The translations under genes were made by a program, and so were the position numbers. Shown piece after piece: positions 53,143 through 63,076 of a stretch of 64,000 nt of DNA. The stretch lies in NCBI GenBank assembly GCA_012521995.1, contig JAAYLH010000045.1:4138-68137 (forward strand). The letters run 5' to 3'. The notes below the pieces were generated by a model. The model saw only the letters and a list, made by a program, of their open reading frames with translations. It had not been told where the DNA came from and did no database searches. Origin of the DNA: Bacteroidales bacterium. GTDB lineage: Bacteria > Bacteroidota > Bacteroidia > Bacteroidales > UBA7960. Position 1 is the first letter of the stretch, and every line of letters starts with the position of its first letter.

Positions 53143-53805
53143 TCATGGCTCAAATTCAACAAGACCTTTATTTATGGCAAACTTCATGAGCCCCACTATG
53201 GTCTTGGTCTTGGTTTTGATGAAGATACTCCTTCTATGGGCTTCCACAGTTCGTTCGCTTATAAAGAGTTTATCTGCAATCTGAGCGTTGCTGTACTCCC
53301 TGGCCATCAGCTGCAAAACTTCCAGCTCTCTTGAAGACAACAGGCTTTTTGACTCTTCTTTGGAATCTGAAAGATCAATGGAGCTATTAAGATTATCCAT
53401 CAAAATTTGTTGCGTATAAGCACACAAGTAGCGCTCGCCCCTGTGCACTGCCCTGACAGCCTCAATCACCTCGTGAAGCTTTGTCCGTTTCACAACATAC
53501 CCTGAGGCACCTGCTTCAACCATTTTTGTAATGATCGAGATATCGTCATACATAGTCAGGGCAACGACTTTCACTTCCGGATGCAATTCCTTAATGCTTT
53601 TTGTGGCATCAATTCCTGAACCTCCGGGCATATTAATATCCATGAGTACCACATCAATGGAATTCATCTCAAGAAGATCCAGGGTCTCGGCAAAAGAGTT
53701 CGCCCCTTCAACAAATTGAATATCCTGCTCTCCTTCTAACAGGGACTTCAATCCCTCTATCATTATTTGATGATCGTCAACAATCAATACTTTAATGGGT
53801 TCCAT
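53143..53805 (-). CDS. NarL/LuxR family response regulator
   Basis: VLIVDDH, DVVLMDINMP, ALTMYD; HTH LSSRELEVL..IADKLFISERTVEAHR. Confidence 0.93.
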   Translation of the reverse strand: MEPIKVLIVDDHQIMIEGLKSLLEGEQDIQFVEGANSFAETLDLLEMNSIDVVLMDINMPGGSGIDATKSIKELHPEVKVVALTMYDDISIITKMVEAGASGYVVKRTKLHEVIEAVRAVHRGERYLCAYTQQILMDNLNSSIDLSDSKEESKSLLSSRELEVLQLMAREYSNAQIADKLFISERTVEAHRRSIFIKTKTKTIVGLMKFAINKGLVEFEP

Positions 53806-53818
53806 AATGCATAAACAA

Positions 53819-55819
53819 TTATTCCAATGGGATTAAAATACTAATAATGGTGCCCCTTTGTGGATTTGAATCAATGAACAGGTTGCCTTTGAGGTTTTCA
53901 ATCCTTGACTTCATATTTGATAAGCCGTTTCCGCGATCCGAAATCTCATTGACATCAAAACCGCTGCCATTATCTTCGGCCATCAGGGTGATTTCATTGT
54001 TCCCCTTGACAATTTGCACATAAAGGTCGCTGGCTTTTGAGTGTTTAATCGTGTTATTCACGATTTCCTGAATGGTCCGAAACAGCGTGTTTTCTATCAG
54101 CTTATCAAGCTTCCCGTTCAGGCCAAAAGTTTTATACGTCATTCTCAAATTTGGGCTTTGATTCACCCGGTCAGAAATACTCTTCAGGGCACCCTGAAGC
54201 CCCCTTTCTGACAATAGAGATGGCGCTAAGTTATGGGAAATGGTCCGAACTTCAATGAAGGCATCGTCAATGGTCTTCATCAAAGTTTCAAGCAATTCCT
54301 TCCTTTTGTTTTCCTCGAAATCGTGGTTTCGTTTATGCAACACACTTGCGTGGATTCCTGCAAGCGAAAGCAAATGGCCAAGGCTGTCGTGCAGCTCCTG
54401 GCCAATTCTTTTACGCTCCTGGATCTCAGCCACCAGGGCCGCATGGGCTTTTTTCTTATTCAACTCAATGATGGTCTTCTGAAACTTCACCTCTTGCTTG
54501 TGCCGTAAGTTTACATAAATCAAATACAAGCCCACCAAAAGCAGCACAAATATCAAAAAAGAGAACCCCAAAAGGTAATTCTTCTTACTGATGACCAGCT
54601 CCTTCTTTTCTATTTCAAGCTCCTGCATCTTATTCAAATTATTGAGGTAGTTCAGCTCAATATCATAGACCTGATGAATGGTCGTTTGGTTAACGATCTC
54701 TTGTTGGGCATTGATATATTCCTTATGGTGAAACAAGCTTTTTTCAAAATCACCCCTTCGCTCATAAATCTGAGAAAATAAAAAATGGGCTCCGTTTTTC
54801 AGGCTCAAATTATCCTGCTCATCGGCCATCTTCATTACATTTTGGGTCACCACAAGTGATTCTTCTATTCGCCCCGAGTTAAGGAGTACTTCGGCAATGC
54901 CCATTTCAGAGATGGCCAGCTGAAACTCAAAACTGGTTGACCGGGCAATTTCACTGCTCAGGGCATACGCTTCCAATGCCTTGTCCGGATCGTTAAGCTC
55001 AGAATAGACTTTCCCCTTGATCTGATATGAGATGCACAAACCATAGGTGTTATTTATCTTTTGGGAGAGCTGCAATGCCTCGTCCAAATGTTCGAGTGCT
55101 TCTTTGGCCTTCTCCTGTGATAGCTTGCAAAGTGCAGCATTGTTCAAAACCGAAACGATAAGAATGCTATCCAGGGCTTCTCCTTTATATTCAAGGGCTT
55201 CATTAAAATACCCCATCGCTTTTTCGCAATTGTTCAAATGGAGGTATACAAGGCCAATATTGTTTAATGCCCCTATCTTCTTCCCGTAGTTTTGGGCCAA
55301 ATCATAAAAATCCAATGCTTCAACAAAATGCAAATAAGCCGATTTTATGTCTCCAATTTCTCTGTATACCACCCCAATATTATTATTGATGTTGGCTATT
55401 TCAAAATAATTTTCAACATCCTTTGCGCGCAACAATGCATCATTATAGTACTTAAGGCCTTCAGAATAATTTGCCTCCAGAACATATGAGGATCCCAAAG
55501 CCTTCAGAAGGGAGATCTTCATCAAAACCTTGGCTTCACTCAGGGTATCAAGAATTTGTATCGCTTCTTGCCTGGAGCTCAGAGGGTTTTCATATAAGAT
55601 TTTATGAATGTCTTCTACTATGCTTTCCTCATACGCTGTCAGTGAAAGTTGCAAATGCTTATCTTGCGGTCTGTGACAGGATGACAAGAGGGCCAATAAA
55701 ACAATGGACAAGATGACCCCGCCCATAAAATCAAATATCCGGTGATGCGAATTTATGGGAAATGAGAAAATATTTTCCTTAAACCATTGCATAATTATGA
55801 TGTCTGATGTTTGGTTCAA
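53819..55819 (-). CDS. TPR-repeat sensor histidine kinase (HisKA_3 type); start codon uncertain
   Basis: TPR-like repeats (NNIGVVY, NNIGLVY), one TM helix, ERKRIGQELHDSLG, QEIVNNTIKH, DNGSGF, GNGL.NM. Confidence 0.88.
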   Translation of the reverse strand: MNQTSDIIIMQWFKENIFSFPINSHHRIFDFMGGVILSIVLLALLSSCHRPQDKHLQLSLTAYEESIVEDIHKILYENPLSSRQEAIQILDTLSEAKVLMKISLLKALGSSYVLEANYSEGLKYYNDALLRAKDVENYFEIANINNNIGVVYREIGDIKSAYLHFVEALDFYDLAQNYGKKIGALNNIGLVYLHLNNCEKAMGYFNEALEYKGEALDSILIVSVLNNAALCKLSQEKAKEALEHLDEALQLSQKINNTYGLCISYQIKGKVYSELNDPDKALEAYALSSEIARSTSFEFQLAISEMGIAEVLLNSGRIEESLVVTQNVMKMADEQDNLSLKNGAHFLFSQIYERRGDFEKSLFHHKEYINAQQEIVNQTTIHQVYDIELNYLNNLNKMQELEIEKKELVISKKNYLLGFSFLIFVLLLVGLYLIYVNLRHKQEVKFQKTIIELNKKKAHAALVAEIQERKRIGQELHDSLGHLLSLAGIHASVLHKRNHDFEENKRKELLETLMKTIDDAFIEVRTISHNLAPSLLSERGLQGALKSISDRVNQSPNLRMTYKTFGLNGKLDKLIENTLFRTIQEIVNNTIKHSKASDLYVQIVKGNNEITLMAEDNGSGFDVNEISDRGNGLSNMKSRIENLKGNLFIDSNPQRGTIISILIPLE

Positions 55820-56013
55820 TGTTCTGCGAAATTAAGTCTTATAATGTTTTGGCCTTAAGTTTTCTGCTGAAAATGACCAAAATAGGTAGCAACAACAAGG
55901 GCTATTGTTGCTGGCACTTAATGAAAACAATTCCTAAAAATAGCGTCATTCACCAATTGCGGTAAAAAAACAAATCCCCTTACTTTGTAACCCTAAACCT
56001 AAACCGGAAAATA

Positions 56014-57012
56014 ATGAAAAAAACTGTTCTATATTTCTTTGCATTCTTTTTCTTATGCGTTGGAACATTTGATTCCTTTGCTGCCCGGACAGCGTTTTTC
56101 CAAAACAACGCCCGGCATTCCGGATTCAGGGTAAGAGAGGCAAATCTTTGGGCTTATTCTGATTTATTTGAATTCAACACAAAACAAGGAAACTTTTTTG
56201 GGCTTTCTGACTTATTTACATTTGACACCCAAAGCGAATCCTTTTTTGGTTTTTCCGGTTTATTCACCTTTAACACCGCGCTCAACCAAATCACCGGCAC
56301 TTCGCAACCCTTTGTTTTCAACACCCGGGTACAAGAAATAACAGGGTATTCAGAATTATTCTCTTTTAACACACTAAGCAACACCATCATTGGATACTCA
56401 GAAGCTTTTGTGTTCAACACCCTTGAACCTGCCATCACAGGGCACTCAGGCTTGTTTACCTTTAACACCACCTCAAATGAAATCATTGGCATCTCCGAAC
56501 CTTTTGTGTTTAACACCCTCGCACAGCCTGAATATTTTGAAGTAACGGTCCAAATCCATCCTGAAGGCGCGGGACAGGTCACCGGGACCGGAACCTTTCT
56601 TCCCGGAGCGGAAGTGACGCTGGTGGCGTATCCAAATGAGGATTATGTTTTTGAATCATGGTCGGATGGCTCTGGGGAAGAATTATCTGATCAAGCAACC
56701 TACGTGTTTATTATGCCCGAAACCGATGTGGCCCTTTCAGCCAATTTCTTTACCGACGTCTCCGTAGCCGATTTAAACACCAATACGATTCGCATCTTCC
56801 CAAACCCTGCCGGGGAAAGGATTTTTATTGAGTCAGAAAGAATGATTCAAAGGATCCTGGTTTTTGATGCCTCGGGCAGGCTATTGGAAAACATTAAAGT
56901 GCAAGACTATCAGACTGAGCTACTTACTGCCCATTACAGGGAAGGCACTTATATAATCCGGGTTCACAGTGACCTGGGTGTCCTTACAAGGCAAATTATT
57001 ATTGTTAAATAA
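56014..57012 (+). CDS. T9SS cargo protein: eight 16-aa repeats, a B-repeat/Flg_new-like domain and a type A CTD
   Basis: Signal peptide; GxSxxFxF(N/D)T x8; GQVTGTG..GAEVTLVA.PN..YVF..W; CTD IFPNPA..GRLL..GTYIIRV..RQIII. Confidence 0.85.
   Translation: MKKTVLYFFAFFFLCVGTFDSFAARTAFFQNNARHSGFRVREANLWAYSDLFEFNTKQGNFFGLSDLFTFDTQSESFFGFSGLFTFNTALNQITGTSQPFVFNTRVQEITGYSELFSFNTLSNTIIGYSEAFVFNTLEPAITGHSGLFTFNTTSNEIIGISEPFVFNTLAQPEYFEVTVQIHPEGAGQVTGTGTFLPGAEVTLVAYPNEDYVFESWSDGSGEELSDQATYVFIMPETDVALSANFFTDVSVADLNTNTIRIFPNPAGERIFIESERMIQRILVFDASGRLLENIKVQDYQTELLTAHYREGTYIIRVHSDLGVLTRQIIIVK
56149..56532 (+). repeat. Coding tandem repeat, 8 x 48 bp (16 aa)
   Basis: WAYSDLFEFNTKQGNF/FGLSDLFTFDTQSESF/FGFSGLFTFNTALNQI/TGTSQPFVFNTRVQEI/TGYSELFSFNTLSNTI/IGYSEAFVFNTLEPAI/TGHSGLFTFNTTSNEI/IGISEPFVFNTLAQPE. 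Confidence 0.92.
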
Positions 57013-57068
57013 CACCCGTCTCAAATCGCTGACAAACAAAAACCATCTTAAATTCAAACTAAATCACC

Positions 57069-58106
57069 ATGAAAAAACTCACAACACTTTTTGCGATCCT
57101 GTTTTTAAGTTTCCTCTCTTTTGGACAGGTAGGTTCCATAGAAAACATTGACGTGGAGCAGCGTACCGATGGCTCCGGAATTGTTGACATATACTTTGAC
57201 CTGCTTCACTCCGGCACAGCAAACTACAACATCAGCCTTGAGGCAAGTTTTGATGGCGGAAGTACATTCTCCCCCGTGGCACCTGAATACCTCTCCGGGG
57301 ATTTGGTGGAGGTGGCTCCCGGCACAGGTTTTCAAATCATTTGGGACGGGCTGGCCAGCCACCCCGATATATTCACTGAAGAAGCAATGGTGAAGATTAT
57401 CGCCAACAAAGTGGAAGCCACCGTAACCGATGTTGAAGGCAATGTTTACCCCTATGTGGTGATTGGAACGCAAACCTGGATGGCCAAGAACCTGCAAACC
57501 ACAAAATACAACAACGGTGATGATATCACCACAGGTCTGGCGAACGAAGCCTGGCAGAATACAACATCAGGGGCCTATTCCGTTTTTCCACACACCGGCG
57601 ATAGTTGGGGCAACCCCATAGAGGGCATTGATTCCGATGGGGAAATGATCAACGCCTATGGCATCCTTTATAACTGGTATGCTGTTGTGGATGAAAGAGG
57701 GGTCTGCCCAACAGGTTGGCGAATCCCTACCCTGGAAGACTATGAAGCACTTCGTGACTTTGCCATTGGAGAAGGTTATCCAAATGAATGGAACTCCGTC
57801 GAAGGAGTCGCCGATGCCCTGCGTTCCACAAGCGTGGCCCCTGACCCCCATCCACGATGGGACGCTTATGAATGGGAAGACTATAACCACCTCGATGTGT
57901 ATGGCTTCAATGCCCTCCCCTCCGGTTACAGAACAGGAAACGGTGATTATTATTCCCTTGGACAACACGTTTATTGGTGGACTACTTCCTTGTTCTCAGA
58001 GGATAATGCATGGACCTTCAGGGTGGAATACAGCAGTGGAGACTTCAGCGGAAACCCCACACAACAAACAATGGGTTATTCTGTTCGTTGCATCAAAGAT
58101 GAATAG
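57069..58106 (+). CDS. Secreted protein: N-terminal beta-rich (Ig-like) domain plus FISUMP (Fib_succ_major) domain, no T9SS CTD
   Basis: Signal peptide ending SFG-Q; DVEGNVY..V.IGTQTWMAKNL, YGILYNWYAV, CPTGWRIPT, YGFNALPSGYR, YWWTTS, GYSVRCIKD. Confidence 0.88.
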   Translation: MKKLTTLFAILFLSFLSFGQVGSIENIDVEQRTDGSGIVDIYFDLLHSGTANYNISLEASFDGGSTFSPVAPEYLSGDLVEVAPGTGFQIIWDGLASHPDIFTEEAMVKIIANKVEATVTDVEGNVYPYVVIGTQTWMAKNLQTTKYNNGDDITTGLANEAWQNTTSGAYSVFPHTGDSWGNPIEGIDSDGEMINAYGILYNWYAVVDERGVCPTGWRIPTLEDYEALRDFAIGEGYPNEWNSVEGVADALRSTSVAPDPHPRWDAYEWEDYNHLDVYGFNALPSGYRTGNGDYYSLGQHVYWWTTSLFSEDNAWTFRVEYSSGDFSGNPTQQTMGYSVRCIKDE

Positions 58107-58140
58107 TCCATACCCGGTCTAAAGCAACCATAAACAATAG

Positions 58141-58172
58141 AGGCCTGTGCAGTCCGTTTTCTGCATAGGCCT
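58141..58172 (+). other. 12-bp hairpin between the FISUMP gene and the large T9SS gene
   Basis: aggcctgtgcag-N8-ctgcataggcct with one G-T pair and only a weak T-tract. Confidence 0.55.
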
Positions 58173-58249
58173 TTAACAAAACAGCAAACCTTAGCCAATT
58201 GCCATTTAAGGATCTTTTTCCTCCAAATACTTTCTTGAAACAACCCATT

Positions 58250-61200
58250 ATGAAACGAATAATCCTCCTGTTTGGTTTCTTTACCTTCCTTATCCTTGCA
58301 AATGCCCAATCCCCCTTCCCTGAAACCGAAGGGAGAAGATCAGCCCTTCCTGAAGGCGCAATCAAACAGGAACCTCAAACATGGAAAAGCATGGATCGTG
58401 CACCGGTAAATAAGCGGGATTTTTTGCCTGGGTTTTCTCAGCCCGTCTTTAAAACCGGTCAAAACGCTTATGCCTGGAACACTTTTCCCGGTTCTTCAGG
58501 AGTCCCTACGGGCCCCGTTGCCATTAACTTATCAGCCGGAACCATCACATCCATCCTGGAAATCAACGCCCAGATGATCTGGATGATCGGTGCCGACTTT
58601 GTCGATGATGACTGGTATGCCATTGCCTACCATCCTGACAATTCCGGTTTGTTTATTATCGATGAATATACAGGAGAAGCCATCTTGGCCGGCTCTATGG
58701 GCTACAGCATGACCGGCCTGGCCTGGGACCCCACCGCCGATGTTTTGTATGCCTCAGGGATTATTGAGGAAAGCAGCTATCTCTTTACTGTGGATTTGCA
58801 ATCAGGAAGTGCCTCCCCAATAGGCCTGATTACCGATGGAACCATTATTGGCATTGCAGCCGACGCCAATGGGAATATTTTTGGAATAAACCTGAATGAC
58901 GGAGGTTTGTACGACATCAACCCCAAAAATGGCCATGGGACCCTTATTGGTTTATTGGGCCTGGAGATTAATTATGCCCAGGATATTGCCTGCGACCGTA
59001 CAAACAACCTGCTCTATGGAACCCTCTATGAAGCGACAGAAGAAATTGGTGGGTTCTATCAAATAAACACCGAAACGGGTGAGGCGACCCTTATTCACCA
59101 GTTCATAGCAGAACTGGCCGGTTTTGCAATTCCCTATTCCCTTGCAGGAAATCAGGCCCCTGCCGCTATTGATGATATTACAGCATTGGCTGGATCCATG
59201 GGACAATTGGAAGCCAACATTCAATGGACAAACCCCTCTGCAACTTATGGTGGTTATCCCTTGGACCAGCTCAATTCTGTAGTTTTAGAACGCGATGGCG
59301 AGCCCATTCACACAATCAACAACCCGCAAATCGGAGCGCCGGCAAGCTACCTCGACCAAGACATCGCAGAACCCGGCATTTACACCTACCTGGTTTATGG
59401 CATCAACGAAGCAGGCGCCGGCCCTAAAAAGGCTTATTCTGTCTATATCGGCCTGGATGTCCCTGCAGCTCCTGAGCTGCTTACCTTAACCGCAGTGGGC
59501 AATGATGGCCTCATCTCCTGGGATCCTCCTGAGCAAGGCCTCCATGGTGGTTATTGTGGCACCAACATCAGCTATTCAATCACACGGTTCCCCGACAATG
59601 TTCTGCTTATTGAAGACCTGACCGACACAGAATTCCTCGACACCACCGTCCCTGAAATGGGCAATTACTTCTATTCAGTGACAGCAGCAAACGAGATGGG
59701 AGCCGGTGGTTTCGCCACGTCTGATTATGCTTTGCTGGCCTCAGGCAACGTCATCTTTTATGAACCTTTTCAATATCCTGCCGGCCAGCTGCCCCCGGGC
59801 TGGACCCTCAATGGCACGCAACACACCTGGACCCTTACTGAGAGCCAAATGGCAGGAGGCAACCCTCCTGAGCTTTGCCTCAGCTATTCAATGGCTATGG
59901 GAAACAGCCGCCTGGTTAGCAGCCCTATTCCTACAAATGGTCATCAGTACCTTAACCTCAGCTTTAAACAATACCTCATCAATTACGAAGCCATCAACAA
60001 TGAAAATATTGGTTTTGATGTTTCCTTCGATGGGGGCACTAGCTGGGAGCAGATTTGGGCCATGGACCTGGGCATTGCAAACATCCATCAGGATGAATAC
60101 AGTTATTCCATAACCGTCCCCCAGGAGGCTGAACAGTTTCAACTGGCGATCCGTTTTGATGGCCTTTCCTATGTGATCAACCTGTGGCTTATTGATGACA
60201 TCATCATCAAGCCTGCCCCGGAAAATGACCTCCTTGCCCTTTCCCTTTCGGGAAATACAACCCCTGTTATTGGAACTGAATCGGTGTACACCTTCGATCT
60301 TACCAATGCCGGCAGCCTTTCCCAAAATGATTATTCGGTAAACCTTGTATCCGGCGACGGCAGCATCCTGGCTTCCCTCGATGGAGATCCCATTGCTTTC
60401 GGCGAGCGGATCTCCTATCAAATCCCCTGGACCCCAACGGACGATACAAAAGAAAATCTTAGCATCTTTGGGTCCATTGTGTTTGATGACGATGATCATC
60501 AGGAAAACAATCAAACCGAAGGCCTCCAACTTACAATTCAGGCTGCTGACATTATCATTGTCAGCATAGGCAATGAATCGGAACCGCTTAAGTTTCAACC
60601 CTATAACTTTTTTAACTACCACAGCCTGACCCAAAACCTTTATTATCCTGAAGAGATTGGCCTGAATGGCGGTATCATCAGCGGCATTAAATATGTCAGC
60701 TATTTTGATGAACAAACCGATGATGTTCCCCTTCAAATCTGGATTGGGGAAACCGATGCCGGCGACCTGTCTGAAGGCTGGGTCGAACCCTCCATAATGA
60801 GCAGGGTCTTCGATGGCCTGATGAGTTTTCAAAAAGGTGAAAATGAGCTGTTCATACAATTCTCCGAGCCCTACCTTTATGGCGGCGAAAACCTGGTGAT
60901 TTATTCCCACAAAACCTATGATGAATATCACCTGTTAGGCCGGGCATTCTACAATTCAAGGACACCCGGAGTTTGGCGATCCCGGATTGCTGAAAATGAC
61001 GATGAAGGGTTTAACCCCGACAACCTCCCTCCTTACAGCTACAACAGTGAATACCATCCAAACATCTCTTTCCTTTTTTCAACTTCCGAGATGGGAAGCC
61101 TTGAAGGGATGATCACTTCAAACGGTGAACCCCTGTCAGAGGTAACTGTACAGATCGCTGATTTCAGCATCAGCACCACATCTGATCAAAACGGATACTA

Positions 61201-63076
61201 CGCATTCCCAATGATTCAGGCCGGGACTTATGAGCTGATCTTTTCAAAACACGGATACTTCGACTTCATAGTCGAGGATGTGGTGGTGGAAGAATTTGAA
61301 TCCACCACGGTCAATGCCTCATTGGAAGCCATCCCCTTGGTCACAATAACCGGAAAGGTAGCCGGAATGGACAATCCTGAAAATGGAATAAGCGGGGCTT
61401 TTGTATCATTAAAAGGATATGAAGACTATGCGGTAAGCTCAGCCGACGACGGGCATTTCCTGATCCATGATGTCTTTGCTCAAAACACCTATACTATCAA
61501 AATCCTTGCACAGGGCTACGCCTCTGTCGTTCAAAGCATTGTGGTTGAAGAGAGCGACCTGAACACCGGCACATTCATCCTACAGCCCATTGCTTTCCCT
61601 GTTAGCAATGTAACGGCAGAATTGCTCCCGGGCGGCGTGAAAGTACAATGGACACCGCCTGCCGGCGAATCCCTGCTGAAACTGTTTCAACACGACGGAG
61701 CGCTCCCTGAAATCCCCGATGCATTATACCAGTACCACGACTTAATGTATGGTACCGTTTTCGACCTTTCCGACTTCCCCGATGCCCGCTTGAGTCACCT
61801 CGACTTCCATCATTTGCAATGGGGCGCCCCCATGGATTCATACCAATATATGATCCACCTGGTCGACTTTGAAAATTATGCAATCCTGGCATCCTATGGC
61901 CCTTTCTCTACCCAAAACAACGACGACTGGGAGTCAGAGATCCTTCCGGGTGACTTCGACGCCTCAGGAGTCAATTTACTGGGGGTCTTTATCCAAGCTC
62001 AGGGCGGCAGTCCTTCTGATGCCTATCCCTGTTTAACGGCTGACGGTACCCCGGATGGCTTTTCCGTCCTTGCCCCTGTCAACGACCCGGCTGCCTTTGA
62101 GCTGACCGGTGACATCGGTGATTTCCTCATCAACCTGTGGATATATTCAGGTTACGGCCTCAAGGAACCGCTTAAGGCCAAAACCTTTTATGCAAATAAC
62201 TCAAGCCTCCTGAAATCCAGACGGGGCACAAGCTTATCCGGCCATATAGCCTCCTTGTCCCAGCAGTTTGAAAAGTTAAACCGGACAGACAAAGCTGTTC
62301 AAAACTATTGGGTGTACCGGTTGAAACCAGAAGCCCTTGATGAGGCCGGTCAATGGCAGGAATTGACAAACAGCACGGCCGACACCCTGTTCTTCGACCC
62401 CGCCTGGAATGGCCTCGAGCCTTCACTCTGGCAATATGCCGTCGTGGCTGAATATGCAGCCGAGGCCTTTTCACAGCCGGCATTCTCCAATGCCTTGGAA
62501 AAAACAGGCGGCCATCAGATCACCTTCAGGGTGAATATGGAAAACGTCGAAGGGTTCAACCCCGACAACGACAAAGTGTTCATGGCGGGAATTTTCAACT
62601 GGGATACCCCGGGCGATGATCCCCTCAACCAGCAGATGCAGCCCTCCGATGACAACCCGGTGATCTTCACAAAATCCCTGTGGCTGGAAGAAGACGGCTA
62701 CGAATACAAATATTTCCTGAACCCCGGCTGGGACGGCGCTGAATGGACATCCGAAAACAACCGCTCATTGACGGTATCAGGCCCGCAAATAATCAATGAT
62801 GTCTTTGGGGTGCCGGACAATGTACACGTACCTCAGCACTCCAACAAGCAGATTATAGTATTCCCAAATCCTGCAAACAACCATTTGACAATACAATCCC
62901 CCGTGGCCCTGGAAGAGGTCAGAATTACAGACATTTTCGGAAGGCCGGTTTATCAGCAATCTGTCTTCCAAAGAGAAACAAGCATAGACGTCAGTAATCT
63001 GCCCCAAGGAATGTATATTGTTCAGACGCTTTCTTCTGAAGGTGTCACTGCAACAAAAATACGGATTATCAGGTAA
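58250..63076 (+). CDS. Large multidomain T9SS cargo (beta-propeller, FN3-like, adhesin/Ig-like, carboxypeptidase-regulatory-like, CBM-like, type A CTD)
   Basis: ATG 58250 gives a signal peptide ending ANA-Q. ~40-aa propeller-like repeats; FN3-like WTNP/WDPP..Y.Y.V.A.N..G; GSLEGMIT/VTITGKV repeats; TFRVNM..YEYKY; CTD VFPNPA..G.YIV. Confidence 0.88.
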   Translation: MKRIILLFGFFTFLILANAQSPFPETEGRRSALPEGAIKQEPQTWKSMDRAPVNKRDFLPGFSQPVFKTGQNAYAWNTFPGSSGVPTGPVAINLSAGTITSILEINAQMIWMIGADFVDDDWYAIAYHPDNSGLFIIDEYTGEAILAGSMGYSMTGLAWDPTADVLYASGIIEESSYLFTVDLQSGSASPIGLITDGTIIGIAADANGNIFGINLNDGGLYDINPKNGHGTLIGLLGLEINYAQDIACDRTNNLLYGTLYEATEEIGGFYQINTETGEATLIHQFIAELAGFAIPYSLAGNQAPAAIDDITALAGSMGQLEANIQWTNPSATYGGYPLDQLNSVVLERDGEPIHTINNPQIGAPASYLDQDIAEPGIYTYLVYGINEAGAGPKKAYSVYIGLDVPAAPELLTLTAVGNDGLISWDPPEQGLHGGYCGTNISYSITRFPDNVLLIEDLTDTEFLDTTVPEMGNYFYSVTAANEMGAGGFATSDYALLASGNVIFYEPFQYPAGQLPPGWTLNGTQHTWTLTESQMAGGNPPELCLSYSMAMGNSRLVSSPIPTNGHQYLNLSFKQYLINYEAINNENIGFDVSFDGGTSWEQIWAMDLGIANIHQDEYSYSITVPQEAEQFQLAIRFDGLSYVINLWLIDDIIIKPAPENDLLALSLSGNTTPVIGTESVYTFDLTNAGSLSQNDYSVNLVSGDGSILASLDGDPIAFGERISYQIPWTPTDDTKENLSIFGSIVFDDDDHQENNQTEGLQLTIQAADIIIVSIGNESEPLKFQPYNFFNYHSLTQNLYYPEEIGLNGGIISGIKYVSYFDEQTDDVPLQIWIGETDAGDLSEGWVEPSIMSRVFDGLMSFQKGENELFIQFSEPYLYGGENLVIYSHKTYDEYHLLGRAFYNSRTPGVWRSRIAENDDEGFNPDNLPPYSYNSEYHPNISFLFSTSEMGSLEGMITSNGEPLSEVTVQIADFSISTTSDQNGYYAFPMIQAGTYELIFSKHGYFDFIVEDVVVEEFESTTVNASLEAIPLVTITGKVAGMDNPENGISGAFVSLKGYEDYAVSSADDGHFLIHDVFAQNTYTIKILAQGYASVVQSIVVEESDLNTGTFILQPIAFPVSNVTAELLPGGVKVQWTPPAGESLLKLFQHDGALPEIPDALYQYHDLMYGTVFDLSDFPDARLSHLDFHHLQWGAPMDSYQYMIHLVDFENYAILASYGPFSTQNNDDWESEILPGDFDASGVNLLGVFIQAQGGSPSDAYPCLTADGTPDGFSVLAPVNDPAAFELTGDIGDFLINLWIYSGYGLKEPLKAKTFYANNSSLLKSRRGTSLSGHIASLSQQFEKLNRTDKAVQNYWVYRLKPEALDEAGQWQELTNSTADTLFFDPAWNGLEPSLWQYAVVAEYAAEAFSQPAFSNALEKTGGHQITFRVNMENVEGFNPDNDKVFMAGIFNWDTPGDDPLNQQMQPSDDNPVIFTKSLWLEEDGYEYKYFLNPGWDGAEWTSENNRSLTVSGPQIINDVFGVPDNVHVPQHSNKQIIVFPNPANNHLTIQSPVALEEVRITDIFGRPVYQQSVFQRETSIDVSNLPQGMYIVQTLSSEGVTATKIRIIR

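Follow-up and report, generated by a model that had tools for sequence, protein, structure and literature searches.

We found that a secreted repeat protein, p1, and the separately encoded protein next to it, p2, are on balance best read as a docking pair derived from a naturally split Ig-like domain, with p1 as a scaffold of eight sites. Both are encoded in the window, by which we mean the whole stretch of 64,000 nucleotides that was analysed. Judged by sequence comparison, the pairing of their two characteristic elements, a 12-residue beta-strand motif and a domain here called N-dom, extends across several phyla, pointing to an undescribed way to hang proteins on the cell surface. No published description of the motif/N-dom pair was found in the literature.

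In current understanding, T9SS substrates need a C-terminal sorting domain (CTD) of their own, and soluble Bacteroidota proteins with an SPase-I signal and no CTD are assumed to be periplasmic. If the reading is true, the predicted surface proteome grows in several phyla of importance to digesters, guts and sediments, N-dom, an unannotated domain, gains a function, and the many FISUMP proteins without an anchoring signal are explained. A 12-residue tag and a catcher of ~97 residues, both small and genetically encoded, would also become available for surface display.

The first-pass annotation had described a repeat protein with a CTD, followed after 56 nt by a protein with neither CTD nor lipobox. 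The ORFs, their coordinates, the gap and both descriptions are confirmed here. The features of p1 are the following (a slash marks a cleavage site):

56014..57012, + strand: p1, predicted T9SS-anchored scaffold protein, 332 aa (ORF; Pfam and NCBIfam domains; orthologue P0011 in the syntenic locus L001)
56014..56082, + strand: putative signal peptide of p1, residues 1-23, ...DSFA/A (from sequence: hydrophobic N-terminus, then an AxA-like site)
56149..56532, + strand: eight 16-aa units (I/T)xGxSxxFxF(N/D)T, proposed trans-donated docking strands (16-aa period; shuffles and codons; phmmer family)
56542..56748, + strand: InlB B-repeat (Flg_new_2), Ig-like spacer domain (PF18998, E 3.9e-16; pLDDT 77-93)
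56794..57003, + strand: T9SS type-A C-terminal sorting domain (PF18962, TIGR04183; SprA in the genome)

The Sec-type N-terminus of p1 reads MKKTVLYFFAFFFLCVGTFDSFA/A and is hydrophobic, as judged from the sequence by eye. The InlB B-repeat covers residues 177-245, with 59.2 bits against a Pfam cut-off of 23.6. Por_Secre_tail (PF18962) follows at residues 261-330 (34 bits, Pfam cut-off 27), and the NCBIfam model TIGR04183 also matches (33.4 bits, cut-off 23). The T9SS translocon gene SprA (TIGR04189) is found in the same genome, on contig C132, with 2657.7 bits and above its cut-off. With a CTD, a Sec signal and a translocon in the genome, p1 fits a T9SS type-A CTD cargo; its secretion, cleavage of the CTD and attachment to anionic LPS are predicted. 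Matches to p1 number 42 in the genome, and in relatives they fall mostly on the half of p1 made of InlB B-repeat and CTD. Four in-frame CGG codons occur in p1.

The 12-residue beta-strand motif is present in eight copies in p1, with the consensus IxGxSxxFxF(N/D)T; one example unit is EITGYSELFSFNTLSN. The pattern S..F.F[ND]T matches eight times, at residues 49, 65 and so on up to 161, exactly every 16 aa. Across 20,000 shuffles of p1 the number of matches had a mean of 0.004 and a maximum of 1, and p1 is the only ORF with at least two matches in the 3.26-Mb genome. At the DNA level the units share ~52% identity, with synonymous codons at the invariant S, F, F and T, and Tandem Repeats Finder called no repeat in the DNA, the units being too diverged in nucleotides. 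The motif has thus been kept by protein-level selection, and not through recent duplication. AlphaFold2 gives the repeat region a pLDDT of 34-51, the remainder of p1 being confident. A word-index protein search with p1 returned essentially p1 alone; the array family surfaced only by exhaustive phmmer.

O-glycosylation of the motif at the Bacteroidota site D(S/T)(A/I/L/V/M/T) was also considered and rejected, as R, K, Q or E often follows the T. A second motif match in the window's genome, on contig C5, was discarded as a false positive, belonging to a cytoplasmic-looking ATPase-type protein (PhoH/PIN-like by eye) without signal peptide.

For p2, we distinguish these features:

57069..58106, + strand: p2, secreted protein of N-dom and FISUMP, 345 aa, without CTD, non-lipoprotein (ORF, Pfam, NCBIfam)
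57069..57125, + strand: signal peptide of p2, residues 1-19, cleavage ...SFG/Q with Q at +1 (sequence; a junction of A or G with Q is also present in homologues)
57126..57419, + strand: N-dom, unannotated beta-rich domain with signature QRxDGSGxVD, proposed strand acceptor (AlphaFold2; cis-form profile; alignment A4)
57438..58100, + strand: FISUMP (Fib_succ_major), C-type-lectin-type head of p2 (TIGR02145, PF09603, PMC5758913)

The signal of p2 is of SPase-I type, likely cut at ...SFG/QVG. No CTD was matched in p2 by Pfam, NCBIfam and CTD profile searches, and there is no lipobox, the signal peptide having no Cys. In terms of the head, TIGR02145 covers residues 124-344 (98.4 bits, NCBIfam cut-off 41.65) and Fib_succ_major (PF09603) residues 130-343 (115.6 bits, Pfam cut-off 33.9). 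The C-terminus, GYSVRCIKDE, matches the FISUMP-family ending ...S(V/I)RC(I/V)(K/R)D. In the AlphaFold2 model of p2 the FISUMP region is mostly below pLDDT 70, and its fold assignment as a C-type-lectin-type domain is taken from the literature on DGR target proteins (PMC5758913). Foldseek found no match of the p2 model to the PDB at E<=0.001, with generic Ig-like matches only, at E>0.01.

N-dom spans residues 20-117 of p2 (~97 aa) and is modelled by AlphaFold2 with six or seven strands, the last of them AMVKIIA, at pLDDT ~80-92; the modelled fold is probably Ig-like. As a single chain it is modelled confidently on its own, and this fold may be autonomously complete. No match to N-dom was found in Pfam, NCBIfam or the PDB sequences. 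The possibility that it is a diverged T9SS CTD was rejected, at an hhalign probability of only ~1%. Homologues of N-dom range from Bacteroidota to Planctomycetota, and the heads fused to it include FISUMP, FGE-sulfatase, Peptidase_S8 and GHL15. Since the heads vary, the constant element is N-dom and not the head; with heads ranging from lectin-type to protease, it is unlikely that a head domain modifies the motif enzymatically. Covalent isopeptide docking of the SpyCatcher kind was rejected as a general feature, because many homologues have Arg or Gln in place of the candidate residue, a nearly invariant Lys in alignment A4.

The surroundings of the two genes contain the following features:

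53143..55819, - strand: divergent two-component pair, candidate regulators of the cassette (Pfam)
53819..55819, - strand: TPR-HisKA_3 kinase of this pair (Pfam)
53143..53805, - strand: LuxR-type response regulator of this pair (Pfam)
55980..55987, + strand: TTACTTTG, near-match to the Bacteroidota -7 element TAnnTTTG, 26 nt 5' of the p1 start codon (putative promoter)
57013..57068, + strand: p1-p2 intergenic spacer, 56 nt, unstructured (fold energy -1.8 kcal/mol, z-score 0.01)
58138..58175, + strand: 15-bp hairpin after p2, likely terminator of the p1-p2 bicistron (fold energy -30 kcal/mol)

The spacer is unstructured and no terminator-like site was found within it on the + strand, and the strong hairpin lies 3' of p2 (z-score -5.6; none of 200 shuffles folds as well), which suggests that p1 and p2 are co-transcribed as one unit. 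Bacteroidota promoters are outside the scope of the sigma-70 scan. Metatranscriptome runs labelled as RNA gave contigs of 16-24 kb across the whole region and are therefore uninformative on transcription. In L001 and L012/L013, too, the kinase and regulator pair diverges from the array gene, and from this arrangement we infer that it regulates the p1-p2 cassette.

The pairing of motif and N-dom was then compared between genomes. Using phmmer with the p1 repeat region, we found ~12 true array proteins among 1.84 billion cluster representatives. These carry from 3 to ~14 motif copies straight after the signal peptide, with units spaced by 16-24 aa and charged or Pro-rich linkers of variable length, and their C-terminal architectures are mutually unrelated. 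An N-dom gene adjoins the array gene in 11 of the 11 informative loci (the window, L001, L012/13, L014 (=L022), L016, L017, L018/19, L020, L021, L023 and L120). In L023, one eight-copy array is followed by two N-dom-FISUMP paralogues.

Starting from N-dom, the immediate same-strand neighbour has the motif within its first 110 residues in 18 of the 73 loci with the N-dom signature, and in three more the motif gene is one or two genes away. The 18 paired loci belong to Bacteroidota and Cloacimonadota; many N-dom genes beyond these two phyla have no recognisable motif neighbour. The background of the motif is 0.1-0.7%, with 7 matches in 1000 non-adjacent ORFs of the same loci and 3 in the 2924 ORFs of the window's genome. 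In this genome there is exactly one gene of each kind, for an N-dom and for a motif-bearing secreted protein, and the two are adjacent. Co-occurrence of the motif with this domain, a check that the first-pass annotation had put forward, is thus far above background, with adjacency in every informative array locus and, across two phyla or more, in many loci with a single motif.

Copy number varies from 1 to ~14 across partners, and in single-motif partners the motif is found exactly at the mature N-terminus, e.g. AQ/QIVGYSDLFSFNT. A T9SS CTD is present in none of the 27 separate N-dom proteins, versus 20 of the 29 motif-bearing partners; those without a detectable CTD are the Cloacimonadota 256-aa proteins, L026 and L032. 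The minimal partners in loci of Fibrobacteraceae type, of ~250 aa, consist of signal peptide, strand, an unannotated middle of ~100 residues and CTD. In a related Cloacimonadota partner the middle region is a Kre9/KNH-like Ig. By these sequences, a partner normally has one strand, with the eight-copy array standing at the multivalent extreme. The idea that the pair is peculiar to this locus does not hold, as the same gene pairing recurs and single-strand partners are commoner.

A form in cis was also observed. In seven proteins (L087, L094 and P0031-P0035) N-dom is internal and S..[FL].[VI]DT comes 8-14 residues after it, N-dom being here within the secreted CTD protein itself. Searching the window's genome with a profile of this form, p2 was the best ORF (E 7.9e-14), matching only profile positions 4-93, so that the match ends before the strand. 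From the strand onward, the cis segment aligns instead with the mature N-terminus of partners, from residues ~24-28 on (E 1e-9 to 1e-16), and also with the final repeat in P0018, whose eight-copy array and that of p1 are homologous (E 9.8e-15). Sequence comparison places the break in homology between the split genes and the cis form exactly at the strand. The cis strand by itself, searched as a 20-column profile, did not recover p1 in the genome, so the equivalence of p1 unit and cis strand rests on the homology chain from p1 through P0018 to the cis form, together with the shared pattern. Bacterial Ig-like domains in general often have S..F.xDT-xPP as their last strand or as a linker, which weighs against the docking reading.

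These observations are consistent with the following mechanism. N-dom of p2 would represent the first strands of a domain whose final strand, I-x-x-x-S-x-x-F-x-(F/V/L)-(N/D)-T, is supplied in cis in some proteins. In this lineage that strand would have been relocated to another polypeptide, secreted and anchored by T9SS, at its mature N-terminus; in p1 it would have multiplied to eight copies with short variable linkers between them. Through strand complementation or augmentation, each unit would take the place of the edge strand that one N-dom lacks, and one p1, attached to the outer membrane via its cleaved CTD, could display up to eight FISUMP lectin-type heads. Because p2 has neither CTD nor lipobox, it would reach or stay on the surface only by attachment to p1. 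The simplest export route would be binding of p2 to p1 in the periplasm, with both travelling through T9SS. We found no precedent for T9SS hitchhiking in the literature and, to our knowledge, none is known. Physical binding, the strand-insertion geometry, the 1:8 stoichiometry and this export route are all what we infer. A scaffold recruiting CTD-less partners by strand donation, as the first-pass annotation had hypothesised, draws support from the comparative evidence, and strand donation in particular from the seven cis-form proteins and the homology break, with binding as the predicted step.

Other explanations can be considered for the same data. The two genes may be linked by fission of one ancestral gene, by a shared substrate and by co-regulation, with no docking through the motif, which would then have another purpose, such as that of a modification site or of a recognition signal for the machinery of secretion or attachment. 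Adjacency and the cis form are equally expected after simple fission, some partners have no CTD, and N-dom is confidently modelled alone, all in agreement with this explanation. However, the motif is found at the mature N-terminus of unrelated architectures, in up to ~14 copies and always beside an N-dom gene, and such spread and amplification are difficult to account for unless it is the motif itself that counts for the N-dom protein. The wide variation of heads on N-dom also makes a shared substrate unlikely. We give fission without docking a minor probability.

If the eight units folded or assembled by themselves, without p2, as an adhesive tip of beta-solenoid or amyloid-like kind, this would agree with the exact 16-aa period, the alternating aromatics and the predicted beta-strands of p1, but pLDDT is only 34-51 there, and the 16-24-aa spacing, the charged or Pro-rich linkers and the single-copy homologues are unfit for regular stacking. 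Variable linkers in homologues argue against a regular solenoid, and the strict adjacency of N-dom is left unexplained, which makes self-assembly highly improbable. Alternatively, N-dom proteins could be periplasmic helpers that are not themselves displayed and whose transient capping of the exposed N-terminal strands on T9SS cargo would prevent its aggregation or pace its export. The strict gene pairing would be expected, the array is aromatic-rich and aggregation-prone with a low-confidence model, and p2 has an SPase-I signal only, for which the default prediction in Bacteroidota is periplasmic. On the contrary, lectin-type, protease and glycosidase-like heads are typical of extracellular proteins, so wide a choice of catalytic or binding heads would be superfluous in a chaperone, and N-dom of the cis form belongs to a secreted CTD protein. 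A helper role therefore appears improbable to us.

Returning to the docking pair, we tentatively extend it to a natural tag-and-catcher of the FCB group, a wider claim that we regard as possible. N-dom would capture a strand of T9SS cargo, and the CTD-less protein would hitchhike with it and be displayed, arrays serving as multivalent scaffolds. This would apply to Bacteroidota, Cloacimonadota, Fibrobacterota and relatives, with catchers on CTD-less lectins, proteases and glycosidase-like proteins. Strand arrays may then be programmable and form the T9SS counterpart of the cellulosome, the strand being a 12-residue element, N-terminal on the cargo.

Among known systems, chaperone-usher pili (Fim, Pap) share with the proposed pair an Ig-like fold without its last strand, completed by the N-terminal strand of another chain, an arrangement proposed here with indirect support from the cis form and the position of the homology break. 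The donor strand of these pili and the p1 motif both have alternating hydrophobic residues. In contrast, polymerisation is absent here because N-dom proteins themselves lack a donor strand; a T9SS-anchored scaffold bears the proposed donor strands as an array, and lectin or enzyme heads are joined to the acceptor. Both the export route and the phyla (FCB group here) differ as well, and no PapD-like chaperone or usher gene was found among the neighbours in the window, L001, L012, L018 and L020. Type V pili of Bacteroidota (FimA/Mfa1) resemble the proposed pair in strand exchange between Ig-like (transthyretin-like) subunits, in forming surface structures and in belonging to the same phylum. Their pilins, however, are lipoprotein precursors, proteolytically activated, with C-terminal strand donors, and polymerise, and no P_gingi_FimA-type domain was matched in p1 or p2 by Pfam and NCBIfam.

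Cellulosome scaffoldins also present anchored, repeated docking sites that recruit separately encoded proteins via a small module, with varied heads (enzymes, binding domains) and a copy number that differs between organisms. Here, the site is a linear strand of 12 residues and not a cohesin of ~150 aa, the module is Ig-like and not a Ca-binding dockerin, and the anchor is a T9SS CTD and not an SLH or sortase signal. Cohesin and Dockerin families of Pfam gave no match in p1 or p2 at E<=0.1; weak Dockerin_1 matches appear only in some distant partner proteins.

In SpyTag/SpyCatcher (split CnaB2), a terminal Ig-like beta-strand is, as proposed here, split off as a short tag and then binds the truncated domain again. 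SpyTag/SpyCatcher is an engineered pair joined by a covalent isopeptide bond, whereas the frequent Arg or Gln in place of the N-dom Lys leaves such a bond unsupported. Tat hitchhiker co-export (PaoABC; PMC4273604) resembles the proposed route in that a protein without a pathway signal is exported bound to a signal-bearing partner; pathway and membrane differ, and p2 would be co-exported through T9SS. Lastly, T9SS type-B CTD cargo in Flavobacterium is paired with cognate PorP/SprF-like genes, so there too a cargo gene has a cargo-specific neighbour. The Flavobacterium partners act at the CTD end as outer-membrane beta-barrels, while here the partner is soluble, the end is N-terminal and the CTD is of type A.

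The p1 and p2 genes very probably form a conserved two-gene module. p1 carries eight copies of a strand-like motif, S..F.x(N/D)T, and a T9SS C-terminal sorting domain (CTD), and p2 begins with an unannotated beta domain (N-dom), the proposed acceptor of the strand. The features in and around the pair are:

53143-55819 (-): TPR-HisKA_3 histidine kinase and LuxR-type response regulator, upstream of and divergent from p1
56014-57012 (+): p1, ORF of 332 aa with a hydrophobic signal peptide
p1 residues 46-173: eight 16-aa units in exact register, consensus (I/T)-G-x-S-x-(L/P)-F-x-F-(N/D)-T
p1 residues 177-245: InlB B-repeat/Flg_new_2 domain, scoring above the curated cut-off
p1 residues 261-330: T9SS type-A CTD, scoring above the curated cut-off
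57069-58106 (+): p2, 345 aa, SPase-I-type signal ...SFG/Q without a lipobox cysteine
57126-57419 (+): N-dom of p2, about 97 aa, beta-rich
58199-63076 (+): T9SS type-A cargo of 1625 aa, downstream of p2, with a DUF4394-like region, two CarboxypepD_reg and a CTD

The first-pass annotation had described 56014-58106 as a CTD-bearing repeat protein followed after 56 nt by a protein with neither CTD nor lipobox, made of a beta domain and FISUMP, and this description is accurate. Both genes lie on the same strand, the 56-nt spacer is unstructured by folding, and a 15-bp hairpin (-30 kcal/mol, z -5.6) is found 3' of p2; they look like one transcription unit. RNA-labelled public runs were uninformative on transcription of the window. 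The divergent kinase/regulator pair recurs upstream of the array gene in loci L001 and L012/L013, which suggests that it controls the cassette. The N-terminus of the 1625-aa cargo is without the docking motif; its counterpart in L001 (1611 aa) is also directly downstream of the pair. SprA is encoded in the same genome. Metagenomes of anaerobic digesters, compost, manure, sludge and bioreactors, drawn from many studies, contain sequence identical to the window at 56014-58106. The organism is thus a member of the Bacteroidales that is widely distributed in digesters and compost.

The motif count in p1 is 8, against a mean of 0.004 across 20,000 shuffles of the protein. The units share only about 52% DNA identity, their invariant residues use synonymous codons, and Tandem Repeats Finder reports no DNA repeat in p1, which argues that the repeats are old and kept at the protein level. 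In the structural model, the B-repeat and CTD reach pLDDT 77-93 and the array 34-51, a low value that fits a segment unfolded by itself. The C-terminal half of p1 has the look of a general-purpose anchoring cassette that has been reused many times. There are 42 matches to p1 in its own genome and dozens in many relatives, where they fall mostly in the InlB B-repeat and CTD half.

In p2, the FISUMP domain scores 98.4 bits with TIGR02145 and 115.6 bits with PF09603, and neither domain searches nor a local CTD profile found a CTD. In the literature, FISUMP comes up mainly in work on DGR targets and Fibrobacter surface proteins and in genome surveys. N-dom has no model in Pfam-A or NCBIfam and no PDB relative by sequence, the weak matches there being sialidase Asp-boxes only (E about 0.1). 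An Asp-box-like segment, S-F-D-G-G-S-T-F, lies near p2 residues 58-67 and reads SxDGGxTW in other phyla. We also considered N-dom as a relative of the T9SS CTD, and comparison shows the two to be unrelated. N-dom is modelled at pLDDT of about 80-92 and shows one short strand besides six long ones; the FISUMP part is modelled poorly, and Foldseek of the p2 model against the PDB gave just generic Ig-like matches (E>0.01). The p2 and p1 models neither prove nor refute a possible open groove in N-dom.

A word-index search with p1 gave almost no matches. Exhaustive phmmer of its repeat region against 1.84 billion cluster representatives returned 14, about 12 of them genuine. In these proteins the array starts directly after the signal peptide, with 3 to about 14 copies spaced 16 to 24 aa apart and linkers that are partly charged or Pro-rich. 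What follows the array is either one to three InlB B-repeats and a CTD, or CarboxypepD_reg, a dockerin-like segment and a CTD, or an unrelated C-terminal region; P0018 (2732 aa) continues with an Ig domain, an internal FISUMP, LRRs and a CTD.

The first reading had p1 repeats donating strands to p2-type lectin-fold subunits, and the co-occurrence it expected between the motif and the p2 N-terminal domain across genomes is borne out. An N-dom gene adjoins the array gene in all 11 judgeable loci (window, L001, L012/13, L014, L016, L017, L018/19, L020, L021, L120, L023), the contigs of L015 and L138 being too short to count. These neighbours are usually N-dom plus FISUMP, with an ...A/Q signal junction and no CTD. 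The N-dom gene is upstream in L018/19, L020 and L120 and downstream in most loci, with two N-dom-FISUMP paralogues after the array in L023. In the window's genome, N-dom is encoded once only, and a single secreted protein bears the motif.

Beyond its array and N-dom-FISUMP genes, L012 (9881-11661 and downstream; also L013) encodes a CTD-only protein of 160 aa, another FISUMP protein of 431 aa, and T9SS cargo of S8 and trypsin-like type, which makes a larger island of surface proteins under the same kinase/regulator pair. As called, the N-dom-FISUMP gene P0008 has a 5' end (L002 6001-6280) that overlaps the gene upstream and encodes a 17-aa unit, ETLHATSLPLANRDISI, four times over before the real signal peptide is reached. 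A DNA repeat and a mis-called start probably explain this.

A scan with the N-dom alignment, using one genome per species and the signature QR[TDE]DG[ST]GxVD, toward which it is biased, found 75 loci in Bacteroidales, Cloacimonadota, Fibrobacteraceae, Krumholzibacteriota, Planctomycetota and others. Among the 73 best-matching (L022-L094), 18 have an immediate same-strand neighbour with [ST]..[FYW].[FLIVMY][ND]T in its first 110 residues (11 Bacteroidota-like, 7 Cloacimonadota), and 3 more have one a gene or two away. The background is 7/1000 for non-adjacent ORFs of the same loci and 3/2924 for ORFs of the window's genome. For many N-dom genes in other phyla, no neighbour with a recognisable motif is seen. 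The motif-bearing partners mostly carry a single motif, placed right at the start of the mature chain (AQ/QIVGYSDLFSFNT...; AQ/EIIGYSDFFTFDTR...; in Cloacimonadota ...SNTNSAVFTLDTVAP...). In an even sample of the window's order, N-dom is present in only 18/151 genomes, about one copy each, and the strong matches again have a strand-bearing neighbour, with variants including GTSGNFVTDSKAP.

In Fibrobacteraceae-type MAG loci (L037, L043, L044, L046, L064, L068), S8 subtilases carry N-dom at their very C-terminus and end in ...RITADDGS at the stop. A conserved upstream gene encodes about 250 aa: signal peptide, divergent strand AVSAPDTLDSKPP, an unannotated middle region of about 100 residues (Kre9/KNH-like Ig in a related Cloacimonadota partner) and a FlgD_ig/Por_Secre_tail CTD. 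The encoded protein resembles a minimal anchor that would serve only to hold the protease.

By the local profile, a CTD is present in 0/27 separate N-dom proteins and 20/29 strand-bearing partners, with none detected in the Cloacimonadota 256-aa partners, L026 and L032. The heads attached to N-dom are FISUMP, FGE-sulfatase-like, Peptidase_S8 or GHL15 domains. What stays constant in the pair is thus N-dom plus the strand; the heads differ, as does the remainder of the partner. This pattern follows the logic of a docking module. Single-strand partners lacking a CTD are encoded at L026 10963-12849, ending in a FISUMP domain, and L032 10968-14660; in these loci the pair would link one soluble protein to another instead of anchoring one.

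N-dom also occurs inside long CTD-bearing or multidomain proteins (L087, L094, P0031-P0035; L089 and L092 encode P0031, P0032 or near-identical copies). In 7/7 of these, S..[FL].[VI]DT follows 8-14 residues past the last N-dom strand (e.g. ...VKAKVRLINMENTSNFIEKESSTFTVDTVPPEV...). A profile of this cis unit ranks p2 first among the ORFs of the window's genome (E 7.9e-14); the match covers only profile positions 4-93 of about 110 and ends before the strand. From the strand onward, the cis segment aligns with partners from residues 24-28, just past their signal peptides (E 1e-9 to 1e-16), and with the last unit of the eight-copy P0018 array, itself homologous to the p1 array (phmmer, E 9.8e-15). 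By the profile stop and the reciprocal alignment, the two genes match the two sides of one break in the cis domain, just before its last strand.

The motif S..F.xDT-xPP is a common domain end in bacterial Ig-like proteins. The strand is not part of the Kre9/KNH-like Ig domain that follows; the Pfam model begins 10 residues after it, and in p1, L026 and other loci the sequence after the strand is unrelated. A mini-profile of the cis strand alone did not retrieve p1 from the window's genome, so the link from p1 to the cis strand runs through the homology chain and the shared pattern.

As the mechanism of the pair, we lean slightly towards strand-complementation docking for T9SS surface display. 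The N-terminal strand of one chain would complete the Ig fold of N-dom on the other, a binding that we infer from sequence, and this docking would serve surface display. We know of no precedent for a CTD-less partner exported through T9SS, and a literature search found none. Chaperone, usher, cohesin and dockerin, sought by domain search at the pair locus (window, L001, L012), are absent, so the pair belongs to neither the chaperone-usher nor the cellulosome systems. With chaperone-usher pili it would share donor-strand complementation, an N-terminal strand completing the Ig fold of another chain, and with the cellulosome scaffoldin the overall architecture of the proposed scaffold.
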